IMG/VR virus record: IMGVR_UViG_3300031992_000470
Direction: 5' to 3' (one strand)
DNA: 22,838 nucleotides
Source: a virus
Positions 128-22,838 of the stretch are shown in pieces (the stretch's first letter is position 1; every line of letters begins with the position of its first letter). The position numbers were made by a program, and so were the translations under genes. Under the pieces are notes generated by a model. The model ran no database searches and was not told the DNA's origin. It saw only the letters and a program-made list of their open reading frames with translations.

Positions 128-287
128 CCCGTTTACACTCTATGTGGATATTGGGAAGCCCCACCACATCGGGCGAGTCGGGGCTTCCCTTGTATTGCAT
201 CCCCCGACGCGTTTGATATCCATACTTGCGGAGCTCTGACGCAAGTTCCCTCTCGCCTCTCGCTCCTTTATCGCGTGAGTTTGTCAT
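1..287 (-). CDS. Holliday-junction resolvase-like PD-(D/E)XK nuclease, N-terminal part. The ORF runs off the window start and continues at 22711 -> 22654.
   Basis: ATG at 287-285 preceded by GAAAGGAGAA. Own translation: MTNSRDKGARGERELASELRKYGYQTRRGMQYKGSPDSPDVVGLPNIHIECKRVEHLNLYDAIAQATRDAGENDLPAVFHRKNNCPWLVTMKLEE..., with the GxRGE...PDV...hhIE-x-K nuclease motif. Joined product is 114 aa. Confidence 0.75.
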   Translation of the reverse strand, partial: MTNSRDKGARGERELASELRKYGYQTRRGMQYKGSPDSPDVVGLPNIHIECKRVEHLNLYDAIAQATRDAGENDLPAVFHRKNNCPWLVTMKLEE

Positions 288-555
288 CGGTTCTCCTTTC
301 TCCGTAGCATTCTTCTAATTCTGCTATCGTCTTGCGGATCACTTTCGTCCACCGATGGCAGCAATGAGCTTCTTGGTCGTACTCTTTGCAATCGTGACAC
401 CACTCCCATTCCGTGTCGTCCCTCCTTGCCTTATATGCCTCAATGGCCTCCTTGCGGTCGATGAACTCGCACTCCCAGGCGTCGCATCGGTTATCGTTCT
501 CTCCGCCGAAGGGTCGGGCGTGTGCGCAATTTTCGCAATCTCGTTTGTTCGTCAT
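268..555 (-). CDS. Hypothetical Cys-rich protein (95 aa, 10 Cys, probably metal-binding)
   Basis: The internal ATG at 555-553 has GGAGGAGG 6 nt upstream and forms an ATGA overlap with the stop of the upstream PAPS-reductase gene. CxxC and CxxxC clusters are present (DCENCAH, WCHDC, HCCH). Confidence 0.6.
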   Translation of the reverse strand: MTNKRDCENCAHARPFGGENDNRCDAWECEFIDRKEAIEAYKARRDDTEWEWCHDCKEYDQEAHCCHRWTKVIRKTIAELEECYGERRTDDKLTR

Positions 556-1361
556 ACTATCCTCCTCCACCACTTCATGACATCCTCGGGTGTGCCCCAT
601 TTGGGATATTCTCTTTTGCCGTTCTTTAGCATCCTATCGAACGCACGGAGATATGCCTTTTCGTATTTCGGCCATCTTTTGAATTGTCTTTTCTTCTCCC
701 TCTCTGTCGCCATTGGGCAGCCAATGCATCCCAGGCGGTGAAATCCCTCATCGTATAGTTTGCAATATGGAATATTGAAGCGGTGGATGAACTCCCACAC
801 TTCGTCGGTCGTCCAATCGATGATCGGGTTAAGAATGAAGCCTTTGCTCTGCAAACAATAGCGCACCATATCCTCGTCCATGTTGTCGGGGTCGAGCCTT
901 TCGCGCTCTTTAGTGTATTTCACTTCTAATCCGCTTCTCGTCAACTTACGCCTTGAAGATTCGTCCCATCTGACGCCCGTGATCTTGTCACGACCTTCGC
1001 CTCCATCCTCTTTTAGTTCTTGGCAACAATATCTCACTATCATGGTCGGCGGCATTGTGTACTTCGGGATCAGATTCCACATTGTGATCACCTTCCCGTC
1101 CTTGTCCCTCGGGAAGTCTATCGAAACATCGGGATGCTTTTCCTTGATAAACCGAACGAGCTCGGGCGGGTCGACAGAACTGACGCGATAATGTGCATCG
1201 TATTTGATCCCCGCCATGTCAGCGAGGGCTTTTATCACGCAAGAGTCCTTGCCCCCACTAAATGCGAGATACCAACTCCCGCCCCTGGGCTCGATCGCTT
1301 TGAGGCGTTCAAGGGTCACCTCCAATTTTGTCATCCCGTAGATGTTTAATTGCTCAAGCAT
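552..1361 (-). CDS. Phosphoadenosine-phosphosulfate reductase family / DndC-like PP-loop ATP pyrophosphatase
   Basis: 269 aa with the PP-loop SGGKDS, RYCCQELK...ITGVRWDESSRRK, NPIIDWTTDEVWEFI and a C-terminal GCIGCP. These are the typical PF01507-type motifs, recalled rather than searched. Confidence 0.8.
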   Translation of the reverse strand: MLEQLNIYGMTKLEVTLERLKAIEPRGGSWYLAFSGGKDSCVIKALADMAGIKYDAHYRVSSVDPPELVRFIKEKHPDVSIDFPRDKDGKVITMWNLIPKYTMPPTMIVRYCCQELKEDGGEGRDKITGVRWDESSRRKLTRSGLEVKYTKERERLDPDNMDEDMVRYCLQSKGFILNPIIDWTTDEVWEFIHRFNIPYCKLYDEGFHRLGCIGCPMATEREKKRQFKRWPKYEKAYLRAFDRMLKNGKREYPKWGTPEDVMKWWRRIV

Positions 1362-1631
1362 TTATTCCCCCATCCTTGCCCCGCAATTCGGGCAATATCT
1401 GTGAGGGCTCTCTTTTGCATAATATTGATATCCGCAGACGGAACACTCCCTCGCGCCTTTGTCCATGTCAATAAAAAGCCACTTCCCTCTTACTTGATCG
1501 GGTGATTCTACTCGAATGGTATTCGGGAGGAGTATCATGCCGGGGTAGCGGTGTTCCCATTCGTCCCGCAGCTTTTCGTATTCTTCGGGGCGGGTAAAAT
1601 AATTCAATCGCAATATGATCCTATCGTCCAT
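1362..1631 (-). CDS. Hypothetical protein with C-terminal zinc ribbon
   Basis: 89 aa. GAGGAGGA lies 6 nt upstream of the ATG. CSVC...CPNC near the C-terminus. Its TAA stop is immediately followed by the ATG of the next gene. Confidence 0.6.
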   Translation of the reverse strand: MDDRIILRLNYFTRPEEYEKLRDEWEHRYPGMILLPNTIRVESPDQVRGKWLFIDMDKGARECSVCGYQYYAKESPHRYCPNCGARMGE

Positions 1632-2875: not shown

Positions 2876-3464
2876 CTCTTTCCTTCCTCTCCTTCTTCTC
2901 GATCGCATCCCGAGCCTGGGCGAAGGTCAATTCCTCCAGGCGGGTCACGCCATAATATCCCAGGAGTCCCGCGATGTTCTCGATCGTGTCCTTTATCCGC
3001 ATTATCTGCGCAGCCGTCGCGGGTCTGTTGTCCAACTCTGCGATGGCCTTGTGAGCCTCTGTTTGCCCTTTTCCGTGGGTGTTTGTCGCGTCGGCGTCCT
3101 TTGTATCATCTATCGCAAAAAGCCCATTCAATGCGTATTTTCGGGCGTATGAGGACGCGCTCCCCGTTATCTGCGAGTCATCCATTCCCTTCTTCATCTC
3201 CGCTTCTCTTGCGAAGGCGGAGGTCGAGATCGTGTCCTCGCCGTCTGATAGGGTCGCGGTCGCTTTCACATATACGCGGCCACCCACCTCGATGATATCG
3301 TCTGATATGGTGAGGGTGACCTTCTCCTTCTTGAGGAGGGGCTTGACCGCTTCGAGGATGTCCTCACATGAGCGGTATTTGTAACCGCCGAACTTGTTCT
3401 CTTGACTTTTGGGGGCTTTCAACTCCCCTTGAATGTGGATGAGCCTCTCGTCTATGTTTCCCAT
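2868..3464 (-). CDS. erf: ERF-family single-strand annealing recombinase
   Basis: 198 aa with KAPKSQENKFGGYKYRSCEDILEAVKPLL and GSASSYARKYALNGLFAIDD, the hallmark ERF motifs. Confidence 0.85.
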   Translation of the reverse strand: MGNIDERLIHIQGELKAPKSQENKFGGYKYRSCEDILEAVKPLLKKEKVTLTISDDIIEVGGRVYVKATATLSDGEDTISTSAFAREAEMKKGMDDSQITGSASSYARKYALNGLFAIDDTKDADATNTHGKGQTEAHKAIAELDNRPATAAQIMRIKDTIENIAGLLGYYGVTRLEELTFAQARDAIEKKERKERDG

Positions 3465-3483
3465 TTCTCTCTCCTTTTCGGTC

Positions 3484-3978
3484 TTACTTGATCGTGATGT
3501 TTTGATTCGTGACCAGGGTCGCCCCTTCTATGGTCTGCCCCTCCTTGATCGCCTTCTTCAGCTTTGCCTTGTCGGGCTTGACTTCCACCTTCTCGACCAG
3601 GAACTCCTCCGGCAGATGTGCGAGGGGGTCGATCTCAACGGCCTCGCTCTTTCTGATGGACATCTGCACCCGTGTCGATTCAAATCTCGGGCGGTCGGTG
3701 CTGACCAGGTACGCCTTGAGATATTCGGCGTAATGGTCGGCGACATTGGTCTTGTGTTCTCTCCTTTTCTTGAGGTTTGCCTCTTCAGCCTTGATCGCGT
3801 CCGCCTCGGCTCTCAAGTCCTTCACGAAGAGACCGATGTTCTCGATCTTCTTCTCAAGGTCGATTTGAAGTTGGTCGAGATCTCCGTCCTCGAATAAGAT
3901 TTCCCCCGTCTCGGGGTCGAATGAGATTCCGTTCTCTATTACTTCGCGGATCGCTCCGTCAATTTCGTATAATGTCAT
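3484..3978 (-). CDS. Siphovirus Gp157-family protein (recombination accessory, adjacent to ERF)
   Basis: 164 aa. MTLYEI..., a coiled-coil middle and a C-terminal EGATL...ITIK resemble Gp157. Its position directly upstream of erf is typical. ATGA overlap with the upstream gene. Confidence 0.65.
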   Translation of the reverse strand: MTLYEIDGAIREVIENGISFDPETGEILFEDGDLDQLQIDLEKKIENIGLFVKDLRAEADAIKAEEANLKKRREHKTNVADHYAEYLKAYLVSTDRPRFESTRVQMSIRKSEAVEIDPLAHLPEEFLVEKVEVKPDKAKLKKAIKEGQTIEGATLVTNQNITIK

Positions 3979-4259
3979 GCCTTTTCATCTCTCCTTTTGA
4001 TGTACTTGTCCGCGTTCTTGTCGTATTCGCGGATGACCTCCTCGCGTGTCTGATATTTGATCCCGTGCTTCGCGCATCTTATGGCGCATATCATCTCGAT
4101 GGCGGTCTGTTCTGCCCTTGTCTTGAAGAACGGACACGAGCCGAATCCACATCGGGGGTCGACCTCTTCGAGGGCGAAGCACCCCAAGCCGAGCGCGCCC
4201 GAGTTGATGCATTCGGGATTGCTCGGGAGGAGCTTTCCGCTTGACTTTGGTCTTGCCAT
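3975..4259 (-). CDS. Hypothetical Cys-rich protein (94 aa)
   Basis: AAGGAGGG lies 5 nt upstream of the ATG. 7 Cys. No family recognised. Confidence 0.55.
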   Translation of the reverse strand: MARPKSSGKLLPSNPECINSGALGLGCFALEEVDPRCGFGSCPFFKTRAEQTAIEMICAIRCAKHGIKYQTREEVIREYDKNADKYIKRRDEKA

Positions 4260-4260
4260 G

Positions 4261-4536
4261 TTAGCCCTCCTTGCAGAAGAACGCGGTCACGAGGGTCAGT
4301 TCTCCGGGGTTGTCCCCATCATCGTTGTCCAGGATATACCCGAGCCAATTCAGAGTATGGAGGGCGGCTTTGATCTTCGTCCTCATGATCTCGTTCTTGC
4401 GTTCTCTTTCGTCCCATAACTTGCCCATCGAATCAATGGGCGGTCTGTCGCCTTGTTCGATGATCTCTGCCGACCAGGATTCTAAAAACGGGAACTGTCC
4501 CATTCTGTCATGTAAGTCCTTACTTAAACGCGTCAT
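4261..4536 (-). CDS. Hypothetical protein (91 aa)
   Basis: The internal ATG 4536-4534 is preceded by GGAAGGAGGG. The longer ORF-track start lacks a ribosome-binding site. Confidence 0.5.
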   Translation of the reverse strand: MTRLSKDLHDRMGQFPFLESWSAEIIEQGDRPPIDSMGKLWDERERKNEIMRTKIKAALHTLNWLGYILDNDDGDNPGELTLVTAFFCKEG

Positions 4537-4771
4537 TTGTGAGCCCTCCTTCCTCATCTACGCGACCGAGGAGACGATAGACGGCATAATGTGCGCCCTT
4601 TACGCGGGGCTTTTCCGTTACAATCAGCCATCCGTCCGCCCTTAAATCTGAAATACGGGCGGCGAGTCTGTCGCATCCGCACAATTTCCGGGCTTCCTTC
4701 GGCGTGATCGTGTACCCGTGCATCATCCAATTAAGGATATGAGCCTTCTGTGATTTCTTTTCTGCTTCCAT
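4520..4771 (-). CDS. Helix-turn-helix (HTH_39-like, winged-helix) DNA-binding protein
   Basis: 83 aa. ILNWMMHGYTITPKEARKLCGCDRLAARISDLRADGWLI matches the pattern of small phage HTH proteins. GAGGAGG lies 5 nt upstream. Confidence 0.55.
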   Translation of the reverse strand: MEAEKKSQKAHILNWMMHGYTITPKEARKLCGCDRLAARISDLRADGWLIVTEKPRVKGAHYAVYRLLGRVDEEGGLTNDAFK

Positions 4772-4783
4772 GTCTGCCTCCTC

Positions 4784-4912
4784 TTATATCGCCAGGGCGA
4801 ACATGATCCCGAGGATCGCGCCCTCTATCCCGAGAAGTGTGTTCCCGAGCCATGCGTGTGTGTTGATATAGTTGATCGCGGTCTTTCCGTTTTCCTTTAA
4901 TCTACCAAGCAT
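4784..4912 (-). CDS. Small membrane protein (42 aa, one C-terminal TM helix)
   Basis: ATG 4912-4910 with AAGGAGG 7 nt upstream. MLGRLKENGKTAINYINTHAWLGNTLLGIEGAILGIMFALAI. The upstream part of the ORF-track call overlaps the neighbouring gene out of frame. Confidence 0.45.
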   Translation of the reverse strand: MLGRLKENGKTAINYINTHAWLGNTLLGIEGAILGIMFALAI

Positions 4913-5289
4913 ATCCTTGCCTCCTTGTTGTTCAACTTCTCGAAGATCACCTCGCACATGGACGATGTCGCCGATGTTCTCCCGAGATGCGCGTGGGGAC
5001 AGTCGCCCCATTTGCTCCTGGCGTCGATAGTGCCGTCTGCGTTCCTCTTCGGCTCGAAGTACGGGCAATCGGCGCATGTAAGTCTCACGCCCTTCGCGAT
5101 ATACTCGTCGGCGATGTCCTCGGGTTCTCTCGCCTCTTCAATGTAGCGGATGAGTGCCTGGTCGCCGTTGACCTCGACGGACGGGCTTTTGTGCCGGAGC
5201 TCATACATTGCTTGGTTTAGTCTGTCCGTCAGCATTTCCGCGGATGCCTCTCTTATCACGCGGAACTGTTCGAATCGTTCGCTTTTCAT
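4897..5289 (-). CDS. Hypothetical protein (130 aa, CxxC-containing)
   Basis: ATG 5289-5287 with GGAGGTG 8 nt upstream. It is the first gene downstream of the promoter at 5393-5422. Confidence 0.55.
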   Translation of the reverse strand: MKSERFEQFRVIREASAEMLTDRLNQAMYELRHKSPSVEVNGDQALIRYIEEAREPEDIADEYIAKGVRLTCADCPYFEPKRNADGTIDARSKWGDCPHAHLGRTSATSSMCEVIFEKLNNKEARICLVD

Positions 5290-5392: not shown

Positions 5393-5422
5393 ATTTTAGC
5401 ACCGCCACCCTTGCGGTGTCAA
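5393..5422 (-). promoter_or_regulatory. Sigma-70-type promoter (minus strand): TTGACA - 18 nt - TAAAAT
   Basis: Plus-strand tgtcaa at 5417-5422 and atttta at 5393-5398. Both hexamers are at or near consensus. Confidence 0.6.
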
Positions 5423-5425
5423 CGC

Positions 5426-5605
5426 CTATTTTCCAAATTCGGCGATATCCTTCAGAACGAGGCGGAGCATCCACCCCGGCATCGCCGTGTCCTCATGCAC
5501 CCAATGTTGAAAAGTGCGGAGCGAGATCCCGCTCCTCTTACAGTATTCCGTCTGCGTAAGCCCCGCAGCCTTGAGGGCGGTCTTTAACTGTTCCCCTTGT
5601 TTCAT
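5426..5605 (-). CDS. Cro/XRE-like helix-turn-helix transcriptional regulator (59 aa, not in the ORF track)
   Basis: ATG 5605-5603 with AGGAGGA 5 nt upstream. Own translation: MKQGEQLKTALKAAGLTQTEYCKRSGISLRTFQHWVHEDTAMPGWMLRLVLKDIAEFGK, a classic HTH core. Confidence 0.7.
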   Translation of the reverse strand: MKQGEQLKTALKAAGLTQTEYCKRSGISLRTFQHWVHEDTAMPGWMLRLVLKDIAEFGK

Positions 5606-5615
5606 GTCTTTCCTC

Positions 5616-5783
5616 CTATTTTTCTCTGCATGAGAGTAAGATTCTCTCTCTATCGCTATCCCAGGCGATGAAGTCCTGGATTGCTTTCTTTTTGCTGGCC
5701 TTTGATTGATACCCCCATATGGTTGTATGGAGTTTTGTGTCGCCTTTATAATACCATCGAATAACGAACTTTGTTTTGTCCAT
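5616..5783 (-). CDS. Hypothetical small protein (55 aa)
   Basis: The internal ATG 5783-5781 is preceded by AAGGAGGAAGG. MDKTKFVIRWYYKGDTKLHTTIWGYQSK... Confidence 0.5.
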   Translation of the reverse strand: MDKTKFVIRWYYKGDTKLHTTIWGYQSKASKKKAIQDFIAWDSDRERILLSCREK

Positions 5784-5808
5784 TTCCTTCCTCCTTGTTT
5801 TCTTCGGT

Positions 5809-5826
5809 GGGGGGCTTTCGCCCCCC
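5809..5826 (-). other. GC-only 7-bp hairpin: GGGGGGC-GAAA-GCCCCCC on the minus-strand RNA, a GNRA tetraloop
   Basis: Plus strand ggggggc tttc gcccccc. There is no U-tract on the minus strand. On the plus strand it is followed by cggggttttattt. Confidence 0.6.
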
Positions 5827-5833
5827 CGGGGTT

Positions 5834-5941
5834 TTATTTCGTCGCTTTGACGATCTTCGCGCCGTTCTCGTCGACCTGGTTGGTAACTGTCCAACCGCTC
5901 TTGTTGAGGAGTTCCTCAACGGGGTTTGTGTTGTATGTCAT
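5834..5941 (-). CDS. Micro-ORF (35 aa), first ORF of the early operon
   Basis: ATG 5941-5939 with GAAAGGAGGGG 6-7 nt upstream. MTYNTNPVEELLNKSGWTVTNQVDENGAKIVKATK. Confidence 0.45.
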   Translation of the reverse strand: MTYNTNPVEELLNKSGWTVTNQVDENGAKIVKATK

Positions 5942-5988
5942 TGTGTCCCCTCCTTTCGGGATCGTGTCTCTCTCTTGTTTACATCCTT

Positions 5989-6017
5989 ATTTTATGCCAT
6001 ATTGGCGTATTTGTCAA
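5989..6017 (-). promoter_or_regulatory. Early promoter (minus strand): TTGACA - 17 nt - TAAAAT
   Basis: Plus-strand tgtcaa 6012-6017 and atttta 5989-5994, with an exact 17-nt spacer. It sits about 45 nt upstream of the first ribosome-binding site. Confidence 0.7.
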
Positions 6018-6054
6018 TAGCAAAAATGCCATTTTTTCATATTTTTCAAAAAAT

Positions 6055-6083
6055 TTGAAATCCCTTCCCCTTTCTGCTATGAT
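6055..6083 (+). promoter_or_regulatory. Divergent promoter (plus strand): TTGAAA - 17 nt - TATGAT
   Basis: ttgaaa 6055-6060, 17-nt spacer, tatgat 6078-6083. GGAGGAGG at 6088-6095 and ATG at 6104. Confidence 0.65.
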
Positions 6084-6103
6084 TAGCGGAGGAGGTGGAT
6101 GAT

Positions 6104-6427
6104 ATGAAAGTGAATCTCGATTTTGCAAATTTCGGCCAGGAGCGCGAGAGGATCGCGACAGAATCAGAACTCGCCATTTTTGAACATCTCAAGGAAATGG
6201 CAGAAACCGAAGACATAGAACTTGTTAGGAAGTGCGACGATTATGTGACCGCCGTCTTCAAGGGTTGGGATCTCGCCCGTTTTAAATACACGCCGAGGGC
6301 GAAGTGGGTCGCTTTCCCCTCTACGGAGCGAGGCACTACGAAGCACTACATCGAATCGCCGGAAGAGGTGCGGGAGTATGCCGACCTTCTGAAGAGGTCG
6401 CTTGAAACTATCAACAAATTCGCGTAA
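6104..6427 (+). CDS. Hypothetical acidic protein (107 aa), the only plus-strand gene
   Basis: ATG 6104 lies 8 nt after GGAGGAGG. The gene has its own promoter and terminator. No HTH or other motif recognised. Confidence 0.7.
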   Translation: MKVNLDFANFGQERERIATESELAIFEHLKEMAETEDIELVRKCDDYVTAVFKGWDLARFKYTPRAKWVAFPSTERGTTKHYIESPEEVREYADLLKRSLETINKFA

Positions 6428-6433
6428 CAATTG

Positions 6434-6457
6434 CCCGAGGGTCTCCTCGGGTTTTTT
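6434..6457 (+). terminator. Rho-independent terminator: CCCGAGG-GTCT-CCTCGGG-TTTTTT
   Basis: Perfect 7-bp GC-rich stem, 4-nt loop and a run of six T, 7 nt after the TAA stop. Confidence 0.85.
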
Positions 6458-20005: not shown

Positions 20006-20353
20006 CTATTTTGCGCTTACACGCCCGAACTCGTCGATTTGGTATCGTTGTTCGTTTGCTCTCTTTTCCCTCTTCCTGGCGTTGATTATCGCCCATTTAC
20101 CGCCATGCAAGTCATGCCTTTCCGCATGGCATTCCCGACATAACAACTCGAGGTTGTCGAAGTTCAACGCGATCTCGGGCTTCTCGATGGTGATCGGGTC
20201 TATCTCTATCTTGTGATGGACTATCACGCCGGGCTTGTAGATTCCCTTCTTGAGACAGTTCTCGCAGAGGAAGAGCCGCTTCTTTGCGTATGCATTCCGG
20301 CACTCTTGCCAAGCCTTCGAACTATAGAAATGTTTTGCGAAGTCTTTAGCCAT
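20006..20353 (-). CDS. HNH endonuclease (terminase-associated type)
   Basis: 115 aa. CENC...VHHKIEI...NLELLCRECHAERH. Confidence 0.85.
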   Translation of the reverse strand: MAKDFAKHFYSSKAWQECRNAYAKKRLFLCENCLKKGIYKPGVIVHHKIEIDPITIEKPEIALNFDNLELLCRECHAERHDLHGGKWAIINARKREKRANEQRYQIDEFGRVSAK

Positions 20354-21479
20354 TGATCGCCTCTATCGCTCCGGCGTATGCGCTCCAACTTGCATCCGCC
20401 TGGTATGCGCTTACTAAATTCGCGGGAACATATATATGCCCGCTCCCGTCTTCTATCGGCGTTCCCTCAAGCGCGCCCTCTCCAAGAGTCACTACTTGAT
20501 TTGCTCGAAGTGTAAGGCTTGACAATTCGTTGTTGTAAAAAGCATATGCCCCGATCTCGGTGACATTAAGGTCTGCGGTTTCGATGGAATCCGTCTCTAC
20601 TGTCGGGATCTCCGCACCGCCCGTCAGCTCGTTTCCTACGGGAAGTTTGAACACATTGTTCACCGAATCGTAATAGCCGACCTTGTTGTCGCTCAATCTC
20701 TTAACGGGCACATAGTTATACGCAAGGACATTATTGCTGAAGAACTTGATCTCACCGTATACAGAGCCGATGATGGTGTAGTCGAGTCCGTCGCTGCTAT
20801 TGATGCACCCGCCGATCATGACATTTCGCGCCATGCCCGTGATATTTCCGCTACGGGTTTTCGTTGTTCCGTTAATTGTGGCGGATATTGAATAGTTTGA
20901 TGGGGCGACAAAATTCGGGGCGATCTTGATGTGTGTCCTCGTAAATGCTGACGAGAAATTAAAACTACCACCCAATGACCATATTGAAGTGTTCGGCATT
21001 ACTCCAAAATATGATCCTCCATTTCCCGAGCCATCAAAGCCATACAGAACTTGGGAAATGCTTCTCGTTCCGTCCATCGATGCTTCAATTTCTGCGACGC
21101 AATTACTCTCACGAGGCACATCTGTCAGAAGTACAGTATTGCCATTGAAGTGTACCGATTCCAACTGAACATATTCGCTTGGGAGTTGTCTCGTACTGTG
21201 GTAAAAAGCATAGGGTTTTATCTTGGGAAGTCCGCCCGGCAGACCGCTCAACTCTGTTGCGCTTCCGTCAATGATCCCCTTTAACTCGTCGGCCCATTGC
21301 TTGACATTGACCTCCACGGGAGAGTATGCCTTGCCCGTCGGCGCGGTGTGTGTCCCGTTCTCGGTCACTTGAAGAGGCTCAACTATAATGTCAACATCCC
21401 CTCCGCCTATCGCTGCCTTGAACGGAATAGGCTTATTCAATTCGTCAACTATGAAAGAATATGATGCTACGATTGGCAT
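20346..21479 (-). CDS. BspA-type leucine-rich-repeat protein with a central beta-rich domain of about 200 aa of unknown function
   Basis: Start at ATG 21479-21477, with GAGGAG 8 nt upstream. LRR_5-like segments IKPYAFYHST and VTEIGAYAFYNNELSSLTLRANQVVTLGEGALEGTP...IYVPANLVSAYQADASWS. Central EYVQLESVHFNGN...GYYDSVNNVFKLPVGNELTGG. Confidence 0.6.
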   Translation of the reverse strand: MPIVASYSFIVDELNKPIPFKAAIGGGDVDIIVEPLQVTENGTHTAPTGKAYSPVEVNVKQWADELKGIIDGSATELSGLPGGLPKIKPYAFYHSTRQLPSEYVQLESVHFNGNTVLLTDVPRESNCVAEIEASMDGTRSISQVLYGFDGSGNGGSYFGVMPNTSIWSLGGSFNFSSAFTRTHIKIAPNFVAPSNYSISATINGTTKTRSGNITGMARNVMIGGCINSSDGLDYTIIGSVYGEIKFFSNNVLAYNYVPVKRLSDNKVGYYDSVNNVFKLPVGNELTGGAEIPTVETDSIETADLNVTEIGAYAFYNNELSSLTLRANQVVTLGEGALEGTPIEDGSGHIYVPANLVSAYQADASWSAYAGAIEAING

Positions 21480-21481
21480 GG

Positions 21482-21805
21482 CTATATCTCCTCGTCGACC
21501 AGGTTGGAATCCGTTGCGATCAACATCTTCTCTGATGCCGCTCTCTTTTCGATTCCGTCCTCGACAAATAACCAATTTATCTGCGCCTTGATTCGGCCTT
21601 TCGGGAACTCCAAGGTCTCTTTCTGCGTTAGAAATACGCTTACACTTTGAGCCGTCAATTCGAGATCGGCGTCCTTCTTGGTCAAGATCTCCTCCTCGTT
21701 CGTGGTGGAGAATGTGACCCACACCTCCGTCGCTTGTGTCAGATCAATATCTGCGGTCGTTTCAAATATGAATGTCGGCGTTGTTCCTTTTATCGTCTCT
21801 ATCAT
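21482..21805 (-). CDS. Hypothetical beta-rich (Ig-like?) protein, 107 aa, first gene of the late operon
   Basis: The internal ATG 21805-21803 is preceded by GGAGA. MIETIKGTTPTFIFETTADIDLTQATEVWVTF... Its stop lies 2 nt before the next ATG. Confidence 0.5.
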   Translation of the reverse strand: MIETIKGTTPTFIFETTADIDLTQATEVWVTFSTTNEEEILTKKDADLELTAQSVSVFLTQKETLEFPKGRIKAQINWLFVEDGIEKRAASEKMLIATDSNLVDEEI

Positions 21806-21998: not shown

Positions 21999-22433
21999 TT
22001 ACCTTTGCGCAAGGGGTAATAATTCCCCGTCGAGTTTTTTCTCCGCGTTCCTCTTCAGCTTCCTCGCCTTGTAGATGTTCGCCTCCGTGATCTCGCCGTA
22101 TATCTCCCGGGCGATCATAGGCCAGGATTCGAACTTATAGAAGCGGAGGGTGATGACCTTCCTCTCCTTCTCGGTGAGGAGTCCCATGAAATCGTCGAGG
22201 ACGATTCTGATGCTCTGCATCTCCGTCTCGATCTCTTCTATCCTGGCATCTATCTCCTCGGCGCGGACGATATAATCAAGCACTTCATTCCCTCCCGCTC
22301 CCGATGTCTGAACGACCGCAGCCTTGTATTCGATGGGCTTCGGGTAGGCGACATTGGCGAACATCTCCCGCCTTCGGTCTTCCAGGGCGGTCTTTTGCTT
22401 GTGTAATTGTAAAAGGCGGAATGTGTACCACAT
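21999..22433 (-). CDS. ArpU/RinA-like late transcriptional regulator (sigma-70 region-4-like)
   Basis: 144 aa. LTEKERKVITLRFYKFESWPMIAREIYGEITEANIYKARKLKRNAEKKL. It is the last early gene before the packaging module. Confidence 0.7.
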   Translation of the reverse strand: MWYTFRLLQLHKQKTALEDRRREMFANVAYPKPIEYKAAVVQTSGAGGNEVLDYIVRAEEIDARIEEIETEMQSIRIVLDDFMGLLTEKERKVITLRFYKFESWPMIAREIYGEITEANIYKARKLKRNAEKKLDGELLPLAQR

Positions 22434-22657
22434 CAGATTTGTCCCTTCTTTACCTTGCGCCCTCTCCGTGTAGTGTGGTTGAGGACTTGTTCACTTATTC
22501 CGGCGTAATGCTCGGCCTTCCCTTCTCTGACCTTCTCCTTGTATTCGTCGTGAGCCTTCTTCTCTTTTTGATATTTCTCACATGTCGAATGGCAGCCCTC
22601 ATGCCTCTCGGGCGGGACGCACCCCTTGCAACATTTGATCGCTCCCAATTGGGTCAT
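22433..22657 (-). CDS. Hypothetical Cys-rich protein (74 aa)
   Basis: The internal ATG 22657-22655 forms an ATGA overlap with the resolvase stop, with GAGGAGGATGG upstream. CCKGC...GCHSTC. Confidence 0.55.
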   Translation of the reverse strand: MTQLGAIKCCKGCVPPERHEGCHSTCEKYQKEKKAHDEYKEKVREGKAEHYAGISEQVLNHTTRRGRKVKKGQI

Positions 22658-22838
22658 GCTTTGCCATCCTCCTCGTCCTTGTAGAGTTCGAAGATTCTGA
22701 ATACCTTCATCCACTCCTCGAGTTTCATCGTTACGAGCCAGGGACAGTTGTTCTTGCGGTGGAATACGGCGGGAAGATCGTTCTCCCCCGCGTCCCTGGT
22801 CGCCTGGGCGATCGCGTCGTATAGGTTGAGATGCTCGA
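22654..22838 (-). CDS. Holliday-junction resolvase-like nuclease, C-terminal part. It continues the ORF at 287 -> 1; 22712-22838 duplicates 1-127.
   Basis: The frame was verified across the junction (…GAG TG|G ATG AAG…). TGA at 22656-22654. Confidence 0.75.
   Translation of the reverse strand, partial: EHLNLYDAIAQATRDAGENDLPAVFHRKNNCPWLVTMKLEEWMKVFRIFELYKDEEDGKA
22712..22838. repeat. Terminal direct repeat, copy 2
   Basis: Identical to 1-127. Confidence 0.95.

Follow-up and report, generated by a model that had tools for sequence, protein, structure and literature searches.

A stand-alone PP-loop enzyme of the PAPS-reductase superfamily in a gut-type siphovirus lacks the catalytic cysteine of CysH and plausibly acts in DNA modification or anti-restriction

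The IMG/VR virus record IMGVR_UViG_3300031992_000470, a stretch of 22,838 nucleotides referred to here as the window, encodes on its minus strand a stand-alone PP-loop enzyme of the PAPS-reductase superfamily (269 aa, 552-1361; PF01507, phrog_424), which is the subject of this analysis. The two ends of the window form a perfect 127-nt terminal direct repeat (1-127 identical to 22712-22838), and the window is therefore the complete genome, 22,711 bp long and circular or terminally redundant, of a gut-type siphovirus, with no whole-genome nucleotide match among deposited phages. All called genes lie on the minus strand. In the order of transcription, SSB (PF00436; 1906-2298), which marks the upstream edge of a variable cargo slot, is followed by an 83-aa protein with 4 Cys that occurs in close relatives only (1644-1895; 4 loci), an 89-aa protein made of an N-terminal domain and a C-terminal zinc ribbon (1362-1631; RGKW...CxxC...YCPNCGARM, with weak zinc-ribbon Pfam matches), the 269-aa enzyme, a 95-aa protein with two Cys-rich halves and no family match (268-555), a PDDEXK/Hjc-like resolvase (PF24608, E=1.5e-7), a 74-aa CxxC...CHxxC protein (22433-22657) and a sigma-like regulator (21999-22433), all on the minus strand. 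The resolvase gene continues over the circular junction, its 5' part lying at 1-287 and its 3' part at 22654-22711, across the window ends. The enzyme is thus placed in an early replication/recombination operon, and the DNA-metabolism context that a preliminary description of the sequence had given for it (SSB, ERF and resolvase) was confirmed and extended by Gp157, a DnaD-like protein and the sigma-like regulator.

Four motifs reported in the preliminary description are all present in the enzyme, and each is invariant in sets of 22 and of 31 diverse homologues: the PP-loop SGGKDS, which is the canonical ATP-pyrophosphatase motif (residues 35-40, 1242-1259), RYCC with the Cys112-Cys113 dyad (1023-1028), GVRWDES (residues 129-135) and GCIGCP with Cys212-x-x-Cys215 (717-728). 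The last of these had been described as C-terminal and actually lies 54 residues before the end of the protein; the C-terminus itself is formed by some 50 residues of helical extension, with no Cys beyond residue 215 and no ECGLH anywhere in the enzyme. In a reference alignment of the enzyme family with Bacillus-type CysH, an Acinetobacter APS reductase (APR), E. coli CysH and E. coli CysD, RYCC falls over the CC dyad of Bacillus-type CysH and of the APS reductase, GCIGC over the GCFHC/GCEPC of Fe-S sulfonucleotide reductases, and TGVRWDES..R over the Arg loop of the reductases (TG-x-R-x-x-QS..R), with a variable insert in the enzyme at residues 139-175. At the PP-loop position CysD has IGKDS and CysH/APR have SFGIE, S-GAED or SFGIQ, where the phage enzyme has SGGKDS, and all three reductases in the alignment end in ECGLH. 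From this correspondence, C112/C113 and C212/C215 are predicted to form a [4Fe-4S] site.

The same pattern extends across the family. The 150 best representatives at 50% identity include 135 of nearly full length; ECG[LI]H is found in none of these 135, and 109 of them keep SGGxDS, [RK][YWF]CC and GCxxC together. The cysteine of ECGLH in sulfonucleotide reductases forms a covalent thiosulfonate intermediate, without which CysH chemistry is impossible, and an intact SGGxDS loop in PP-loop enzymes goes with ATP alpha-beta cleavage and substrate adenylation. From the missing ECGLH cysteine we infer that the enzyme cannot form an enzyme-thiosulfonate intermediate and is not a CysH-type auxiliary metabolic gene (AMG) of sulfur metabolism.

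Family scores place the enzyme within the superfamily and outside its curated members. PF01507 (PAPS_reduct) is its sole Pfam domain (63.5 bits), and its best match in PHROGs is phrog_424 "PAPS reductase" (E=6.1e-34), spanning positions 155-366 of the 460-position profile. No curated NCBIfam model was passed: the best matches, PRK13795 and PRK08557 (unnamed archaeal models), reach 60-70 bits versus cut-offs of 366-745, and the CysH/APS reductase models PRK02090, TIGR00434 and TIGR02055 reach 47.2, 43.3 and 44.6 bits versus cut-offs of 154, 165 and 235, respectively. The DndC model TIGR03183 is matched with 24.6 bits over residues 128-201 (cut-off 290) and the CysD model with 22.5 bits (cut-off 195). 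In PADLOC, BrxP is matched with 44.9 bits across the whole domain (model positions 126-343 of 779) and DndC partially, with 22.7 bits. The term "DndC-like" of the preliminary description was therefore too strong, the enzyme scoring closer to APS reductase/CysH and to the unnamed archaeal models.

The fold points in the same direction. Foldseek searches with an AlphaFold2 model of the enzyme (mean pLDDT 82.8) gave the Fe-S APS reductase 2GOY as the best match among solved structures (E=1e-7, template modelling (TM) score 0.52-0.61), followed by CysD, FAD synthase and PAPS reductases, and then more weakly by TtuA and LarE (ranks 22-39; TM 0.35-0.42, root-mean-square deviation ~16 Å), with no family-level sequence match to tRNA thiolases. 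Viral structural neighbours of the enzyme are labelled PAPS reductase, a COG3969-labelled viral model being weaker (TMq 0.42), and no solved structure of DndC, SspD or BrxP was among the sequence or fold matches. The canonical PP-loop and Fe-S Cys set, together with the appearance of TtuA and LarE in the fold search, would suit a modifier of RNA, i.e., a tRNA/rRNA thiolase or related PP-loop enzyme (TtuA/TtcA-like) that tunes translation or counters tRNA-targeting defences. This alternative is unlikely, as the TtuA and LarE matches are weaker than those to APR, no tRNA is encoded by the phage, and the neighbours of the enzyme are DNA-metabolism and DNA-methylase genes. By sequence, the best PDB matches are PAPS-type domains of FAD synthase (NPIIDW...PYCxLYDxG motif, E=1e-7 to 3e-9), and the xGKDS loop is common to CysD, as might be expected of a small-molecule adenylyltransferase (CysD- or eukaryotic FMN adenylyltransferase (FMNAT)-like) that makes or destroys a nucleotide cofactor or signal; however, the FAD synthase matches span only ~35-60 residues, FMNAT and CysD are without the Fe-S tetrad, and the genomic context is DNA-centred, which makes such an activity quite improbable.

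Relatives of the enzyme are abundant. More than 7,800 metagenome proteins match it at E<=1e-10, at least 585 IMG/VR stretches encode relatives, and the clusters at 50% identity number 442 at E<=1e-30, 1,464 at 1e-10 and 3,569 at 1e-3. Deposited carriers include phages of Clostridium, Ruminococcus and Bacteroides, the Methanosarcina virus MetMV and an Altiarchaeum virus, as well as plasmids of C. perfringens, C. baratii and Bacteroides, while matches in genomes come chiefly from anaerobic Bacillota, and also from Bacteroidales, Spirochaetes, Thermosipho, Patescibacteria and Bathyarchaeia, in contexts of prophages or integrative and conjugative elements (ICEs). The gene family is one of mobile elements rather than of host metabolism, and the enzyme belongs to a very large, known but uncharacterised PAPS-reductase/PP-loop clade on mobile elements. 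One subclade (~48% identity; L122, L126, L127, L134 and other Lachnospiraceae/Hungatella loci) stands beside PcfK-like, DUF5688, DUF6103 and DUF7666 genes, a setting that is read as that of a conjugative element rather than of a phage.

These data bear on the possibility that the gene is a true AMG, i.e., a phage CysH/APS reductase raising the supply of sulfite or cysteine in the host during infection. Such a role has been argued in several virome papers, and virome papers up to 2026 still treat phage cysH/PAPS reductase as a sulfur AMG; in our literature search, no paper was found to remark that phage "cysH" lacks its catalytic cysteine. In favour of an AMG are the PAPS_reduct domain, the label in databases, the APS/PAPS reductases as closest solved structures by fold or sequence, and the retained APR-type CC...CxxC tetrad. 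The ECGLH catalytic cysteine is nevertheless missing family-wide, the PP-loop is of the ATP type, the scores amount to about one quarter of the curated cut-offs, family-library scans found no cys or other sulfur-metabolism gene in the 22.7-kb genome, and relatives lie on conjugative elements and beside DNA methylases. Moreover, Bifidobacterium, which is among the carrier hosts, was reported in a virome study to be without sulfate assimilation, and this likewise counts against an AMG. The sulfur-AMG reading of the gene is very unlikely, and it is the least likely of the rivals that we retain. The claim of the preliminary description that the enzyme is not an assimilatory CysH is thus borne out by the absence of ECGLH both in the enzyme and in all 135 near-full-length representatives, the ATP-type PP-loop, the scores of 43-47 bits versus cut-offs of 154-235, the lack of cys genes and the mobile carriage.

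The preliminary description had also taken the enzyme to form a module with Cys-rich partners, citing gapless chaining to the flanking genes and six small Cys-rich proteins encoded in the genome. Those six open reading frames (ORFs) exist, with 9, 4, 4, 6, 5 and 5 Cys, although the 95-aa protein had been credited with 10 Cys and has 9, ten being reached only in a longer 110-aa ORF that starts at 600. None of the Cys-rich proteins has a match above threshold in Pfam, PHROGs, NCBIfam or PADLOC. The junctions are as described, the TAA of 1362-1631 standing directly before the ATG at 1361-1359 and the downstream gene overlapping the enzyme by an ATGA at 552-555. The 89-aa, 269-aa and 95-aa genes each have a separate GGAGG-like Shine-Dalgarno sequence, as read from the sequence, and no promoter or terminator was found on the coding strand within 268-2300. 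The whole genome has 40 pairs of adjacent genes, of which 20 overlap or abut and 29 are spaced by 15 nt or less; because half of the pairs overlap or abut, gapless chaining carries no special information here. The enzyme motifs, conserved family-wide, exceed chance, and the gapless chaining, being the norm of this genome, does not.

Partners were sought by BLAST, jackhmmer and Pfam among the four genes on either side of the enzyme in 80 IMG/VR loci (38-84% identity), and in a second set of 80 genome loci, one per GTDB species, within +/-3 kb or +/-3 genes. The same three genes, for the 89-aa protein, the enzyme and the 95-aa protein, stand together again in two phages (L090 and L091) whose enzyme is ~91% identical. 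In the closest IMG/VR relative (L003, 84% identity) the zinc-ribbon gene is missing, and in L092 (enzyme 83% identical) there is likewise no zinc-ribbon gene upstream. The downstream gene of L092 instead joins the N-terminal 45-46 residues of the 95-aa protein to a protein similar to the 89-aa zinc-ribbon protein (ZnR89) (4810-5202 and 5495-5815 for the two paralogues), the second paralogue carrying the same N-domain of the 95-aa protein with a different zinc ribbon. These fusions are domain shuffling among small Cys-rich phage proteins.

Neighbour families in the 80 IMG/VR loci remain small, the largest occurring in 12 loci (C5-methyltransferase 12, N6/N4-methyltransferase 10, YopX 10, SSB 9, and a zinc-ribbon family at +1 in 7). 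The zinc-ribbon domain itself (RGKW...CxxC...YCPxCGA[KR]M), searched with an iterated profile, is present in 33 of ~90 loci, often in two or three copies and at varying offsets; the 74-aa family (CxxC...(G)CHxxC(E)xY), which has no Pfam or PHROG assignment, occurs in 19 viral loci, also at varying offsets and usually just ahead of the late regulator or the terminase. A small Cys-rich protein occupies the +1 position in 31 of 77 viral loci versus 12-22 at other offsets. No such excess at +1 exists in the 80 species-level genome loci, where the zinc ribbon is found in 3, the N-domain of the 95-aa protein (Cys95N) in none and the 74-aa protein (Cys74) in 2. In a scan of ten long representatives for fusions, PF01507 stood alone with one exception, which has DUF3102, and a zinc-ribbon fusion of the enzyme was found as one truncated fragment among the 150 representatives.

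No obligatory neighbour of the enzyme emerged in the 80 viral and 80 genome loci, and the idea of a module with Cys-rich partners was therefore rejected, since the neighbours have already been reshuffled or lost at 83-84% identity and hardly occur in the 80 genome loci. The preliminary description had itself named absence of flanking-gene co-occurrence in relatives as one of its grounds for refutation, and the flanking genes are kept only in the ~91%-identical phages. What could still be said for a three-gene complex, in which the enzyme would work obligately with the zinc-ribbon and 9-Cys proteins, e.g., as DNA-targeting or sulfur-relay subunits, is that the gapless trio is kept at ~91% identity, that L092 has an apparent fusion of the two flanking proteins on the downstream side of the enzyme, and that the +1 position is enriched in small Cys-rich proteins among viral loci, with a related zinc-ribbon family there in at least 7 of them. 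Set against this are the loss of ZnR89 from L003, unrelated neighbours in most of the 80 viral loci, the near absence of all three families and of any +1 excess in the genome loci, the multi-copy and domain-shuffling behaviour of these families, which resembles that of generic small phage proteins, the tight packing of the genome as a whole and the single truncated fusion, and we consider an obligate complex highly doubtful. The products of the Cys-rich genes on either side are commonplace small zinc-ribbon proteins of phages that shuffle rapidly; together with the enzyme they occupy the variable cargo slot between SSB and the resolvase, and the enzyme does not require them as partners.

The commonest identifiable neighbours of the enzyme are DNA methyltransferases, at ~12-18% of loci. 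Pfam scans covered 127 neighbours at the +/-1 positions and a further 108 at +/-2; in these, DNA_methylase was found 7 and 4 times, N6_N4_Mtase 2 and 2 times, Dam once and ParB_N twice (2 of the 127 immediate neighbours), and methyltransferases lie within 3 kb of the enzyme in 11 of the 80 species-level genome loci. No DndD-, SspC- or BrxC-like ATPase and no desulfurase was among the families listed (top 25 per scan) for these 235 neighbours. In L003, a C5-cytosine methyltransferase lies at 2994-4621, between SSB and the homologue of the 83-aa protein (p83); its motif IV (GSPCQDLS) is in one ORF and its C-terminal motifs, with a motif-I-like FDGIGG, are in a later one, as may result from permutation, splitting or a frameshift of the gene.

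Several published systems connect the PAPS-reductase superfamily with DNA and defence. DNA phosphorothioate (PT) is made by DndC, SspD and BrxP, which are ATP pyrophosphatases with a PAPS domain; its known synthesis requires a P-loop ATPase partner (DndD, SspC or BrxC). Fe-S thiolases and DndC have been described with three-Cys clusters in which one iron is free. Transfer of two phage-specific genes, one of them a PAPS-Dam fusion, into a Vibrio phage conferred anti-Dnd activity (Piel et al. 2022; preprint 10.1101/2021.05.05.442762), and phage PAPS reductases are listed as candidate anti-defence genes in variable regions (2026 NAR paper). The PAPS-Dam phage of Vibrio was not recovered by tblastn of the enzyme at E<=1e-5.

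The Vibrio phenotype can also be taken to favour a decoy or inhibitor, i.e., a protein that mimics DndC, SspD or BrxP and ties up partner proteins or sulfur donors of the host, or uses up ATP, so that PT defence is disarmed without DNA modification; the PADLOC BrxP match of 44.9 bits across the whole domain and the stand-alone state of the enzyme, with no partner ATPase, would agree with this. Yet the strict conservation of the PP-loop and Fe-S cysteines over hundreds of clusters argues for catalysis, and PT systems are present in only a few percent of gut genomes, yet the enzyme family is very common. A function as decoy or inhibitor is in our judgement decidedly unlikely.

The best explanation, to which we give a probability of roughly one half, is a stand-alone PP-loop enzyme that adenylates nucleic acid, with an Fe-S-assisted follow-up step, and protects the phage from host defences. 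In this scheme the enzyme would bind ATP and adenylate an oxygen of a nucleic acid, which is most likely the DNA of the element itself, with RNA as a possible alternative. The Fe-S site would assist a subsequent transfer, in which sulfur would probably be supplied by a donor of the host, and incoming or replicating phage DNA would in this way be shielded from host restriction or from phosphorothioate-based defences. Adenylation, the Fe-S-assisted step and the counter-defence benefit are all deduced from the fold, the PP-loop, the Cys tetrad, the loss of the tail and the placement in the cargo slot. A role of the enzyme in DNA modification or anti-restriction, as put forward in the preliminary description, is on this analysis plausible.

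A number of observations weigh against such an explanation. No DNA or RNA modification has been observed, the partner ATPase of PT synthesis is absent from the genome and from the neighbour families listed, and the enzyme scores closer to APS reductase/CysH than to DndC. The fold match to APR is moderate (TM 0.52-0.61). Since all four APR-type ligand cysteines are kept, versus the three described for Fe-S thiolases and DndC, the reaction may be something other than sulfur insertion. Methyltransferases adjoin the enzyme at only ~12-18% of loci, a raw rate uncorrected for background, and the Vibrio precedent is a different, fused clade, undetected by tblastn at E<=1e-5. A more specific and bolder version, to which we attach only a small probability, is that the enzyme, alone or with IscS-type sulfur donors of the host and without a DndD/SspC/BrxC ATPase, installs an undescribed ATP-dependent, possibly sulfur-containing DNA mark, and that the shuffling zinc ribbons supply or vary its target specificity.

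The remainder of the genome is that of a small tailed phage, its early half comprising a helix-turn-helix (HTH) protein, a winged HTH protein, Gp157, ERF, a DnaD-like loader and SSB, and its late half an HNH protein, TerL, portal, prohead protease, capsid, tail tube, tape measure, Dit-like and Tal-like proteins, together with a holin and an M15 endolysin. Neither a small terminase nor an integrase was recognised anywhere in the genome, and searches for tRNAs and RNA elements gave no matches. The position expected for a small terminase, from the sigma-like regulator to the HNH/TerL genes, holds a 377-aa protein (20346-21805; 458 aa from an alternative GTG start), with only a weak match to BspA-type leucine-rich repeats, and a 107-aa phrog_15594 protein. 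Two tandem repeat blocks (2376-2425 and 2439-2482) lie within the 193 nt that separate the DnaD-like gene from SSB, with units of the CTAATCTAATCTATA type (15 nt) and of the TGTGCTCCGCT type (11 nt), and they look like the iterons of a replication origin. Further upstream, near-consensus sigma-70-like promoters on the minus strand (5393-5422 and 5989-6017; 11/12 matches) face the early genes, and the sole sizeable plus-strand ORF (6095-6427, 110 aa, without family) ends at a strong terminator-like hairpin (6433-6452); together, the promoters and this ORF (5393-6452) may form a divergent regulatory region.

Phage cysH/PAPS reductase is among the genes most often reported as viral AMGs, and recent ecological and health conclusions have been drawn from it. 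If the pattern of the missing cysteine holds generally, sulfur-cycling interpretations are wrong for the clade of this enzyme, and a very common mobile-element enzyme, plausibly a counter-defence modifier of nucleic acid, remains to be characterised. If, in addition, a DNA mark made without a partner ATPase proved true, the viral "cysH AMG" would be a widespread minimal system of DNA modification for counter-defence. The idea of DNA modification or anti-defence for phage PAPS reductases is already published, and the window is a clean test case for it rather than a new concept; what is added here is the clade-wide loss of the CysH catalytic cysteine with the ATP loop and Fe-S tetrad kept, and the negative result on the Cys-rich partners.

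Compared with known systems, the enzyme shares with Fe-S APS reductase/Bacillus-type CysH (2GOY) the PAPS_reduct fold, the CC...CxxC cysteines column for column and the TG-x-R-x-(D/E)-(E/Q)-S...R motif; in contrast to these, it has no ECGLH tail, carries SGGKDS in place of the degenerate SxG, and has an extra Cys-free helical C-terminus, the insert at 139-175 and no cys context. With DndC, SspD and BrxP it has in common the PP-loop ATP pyrophosphatase of the same superfamily, the Fe-S cysteines and a nucleic-acid or defence context, whereas at 269 aa it is without the DUF4007 of BrxP or the long C-terminus of DndC and has no DndD, SspC, BrxC ATPase, DndE or SspB nearby; BrxP of BREX type 4 differs further in that the phage enzyme is single-domain and the window has no brxC, brxZ or brxL. 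IbrA/COG3969 belongs to the same superfamily and is likewise common on prophages, but IbrA has DUF3440 and is paired with the ParB-like IbrB, while the phage enzyme has neither DUF3440 nor a second domain, and there is no ParB in the window. Protein p0018 of Vibrio phage 44E38.1 is similarly a phage-borne PAPS-reductase domain tied to a DNA methylase, and methylases are frequent neighbours in the clade of the window enzyme; p0018 is, however, a 479-aa fusion, in contrast to the stand-alone enzyme of a genome without a methylase. Finally, PHROG 424 is the best library match and is likewise carried on phages, plasmids, prophages and ICE-like loci, and it is its AMG/CysH label that the missing catalytic Cys contradicts.

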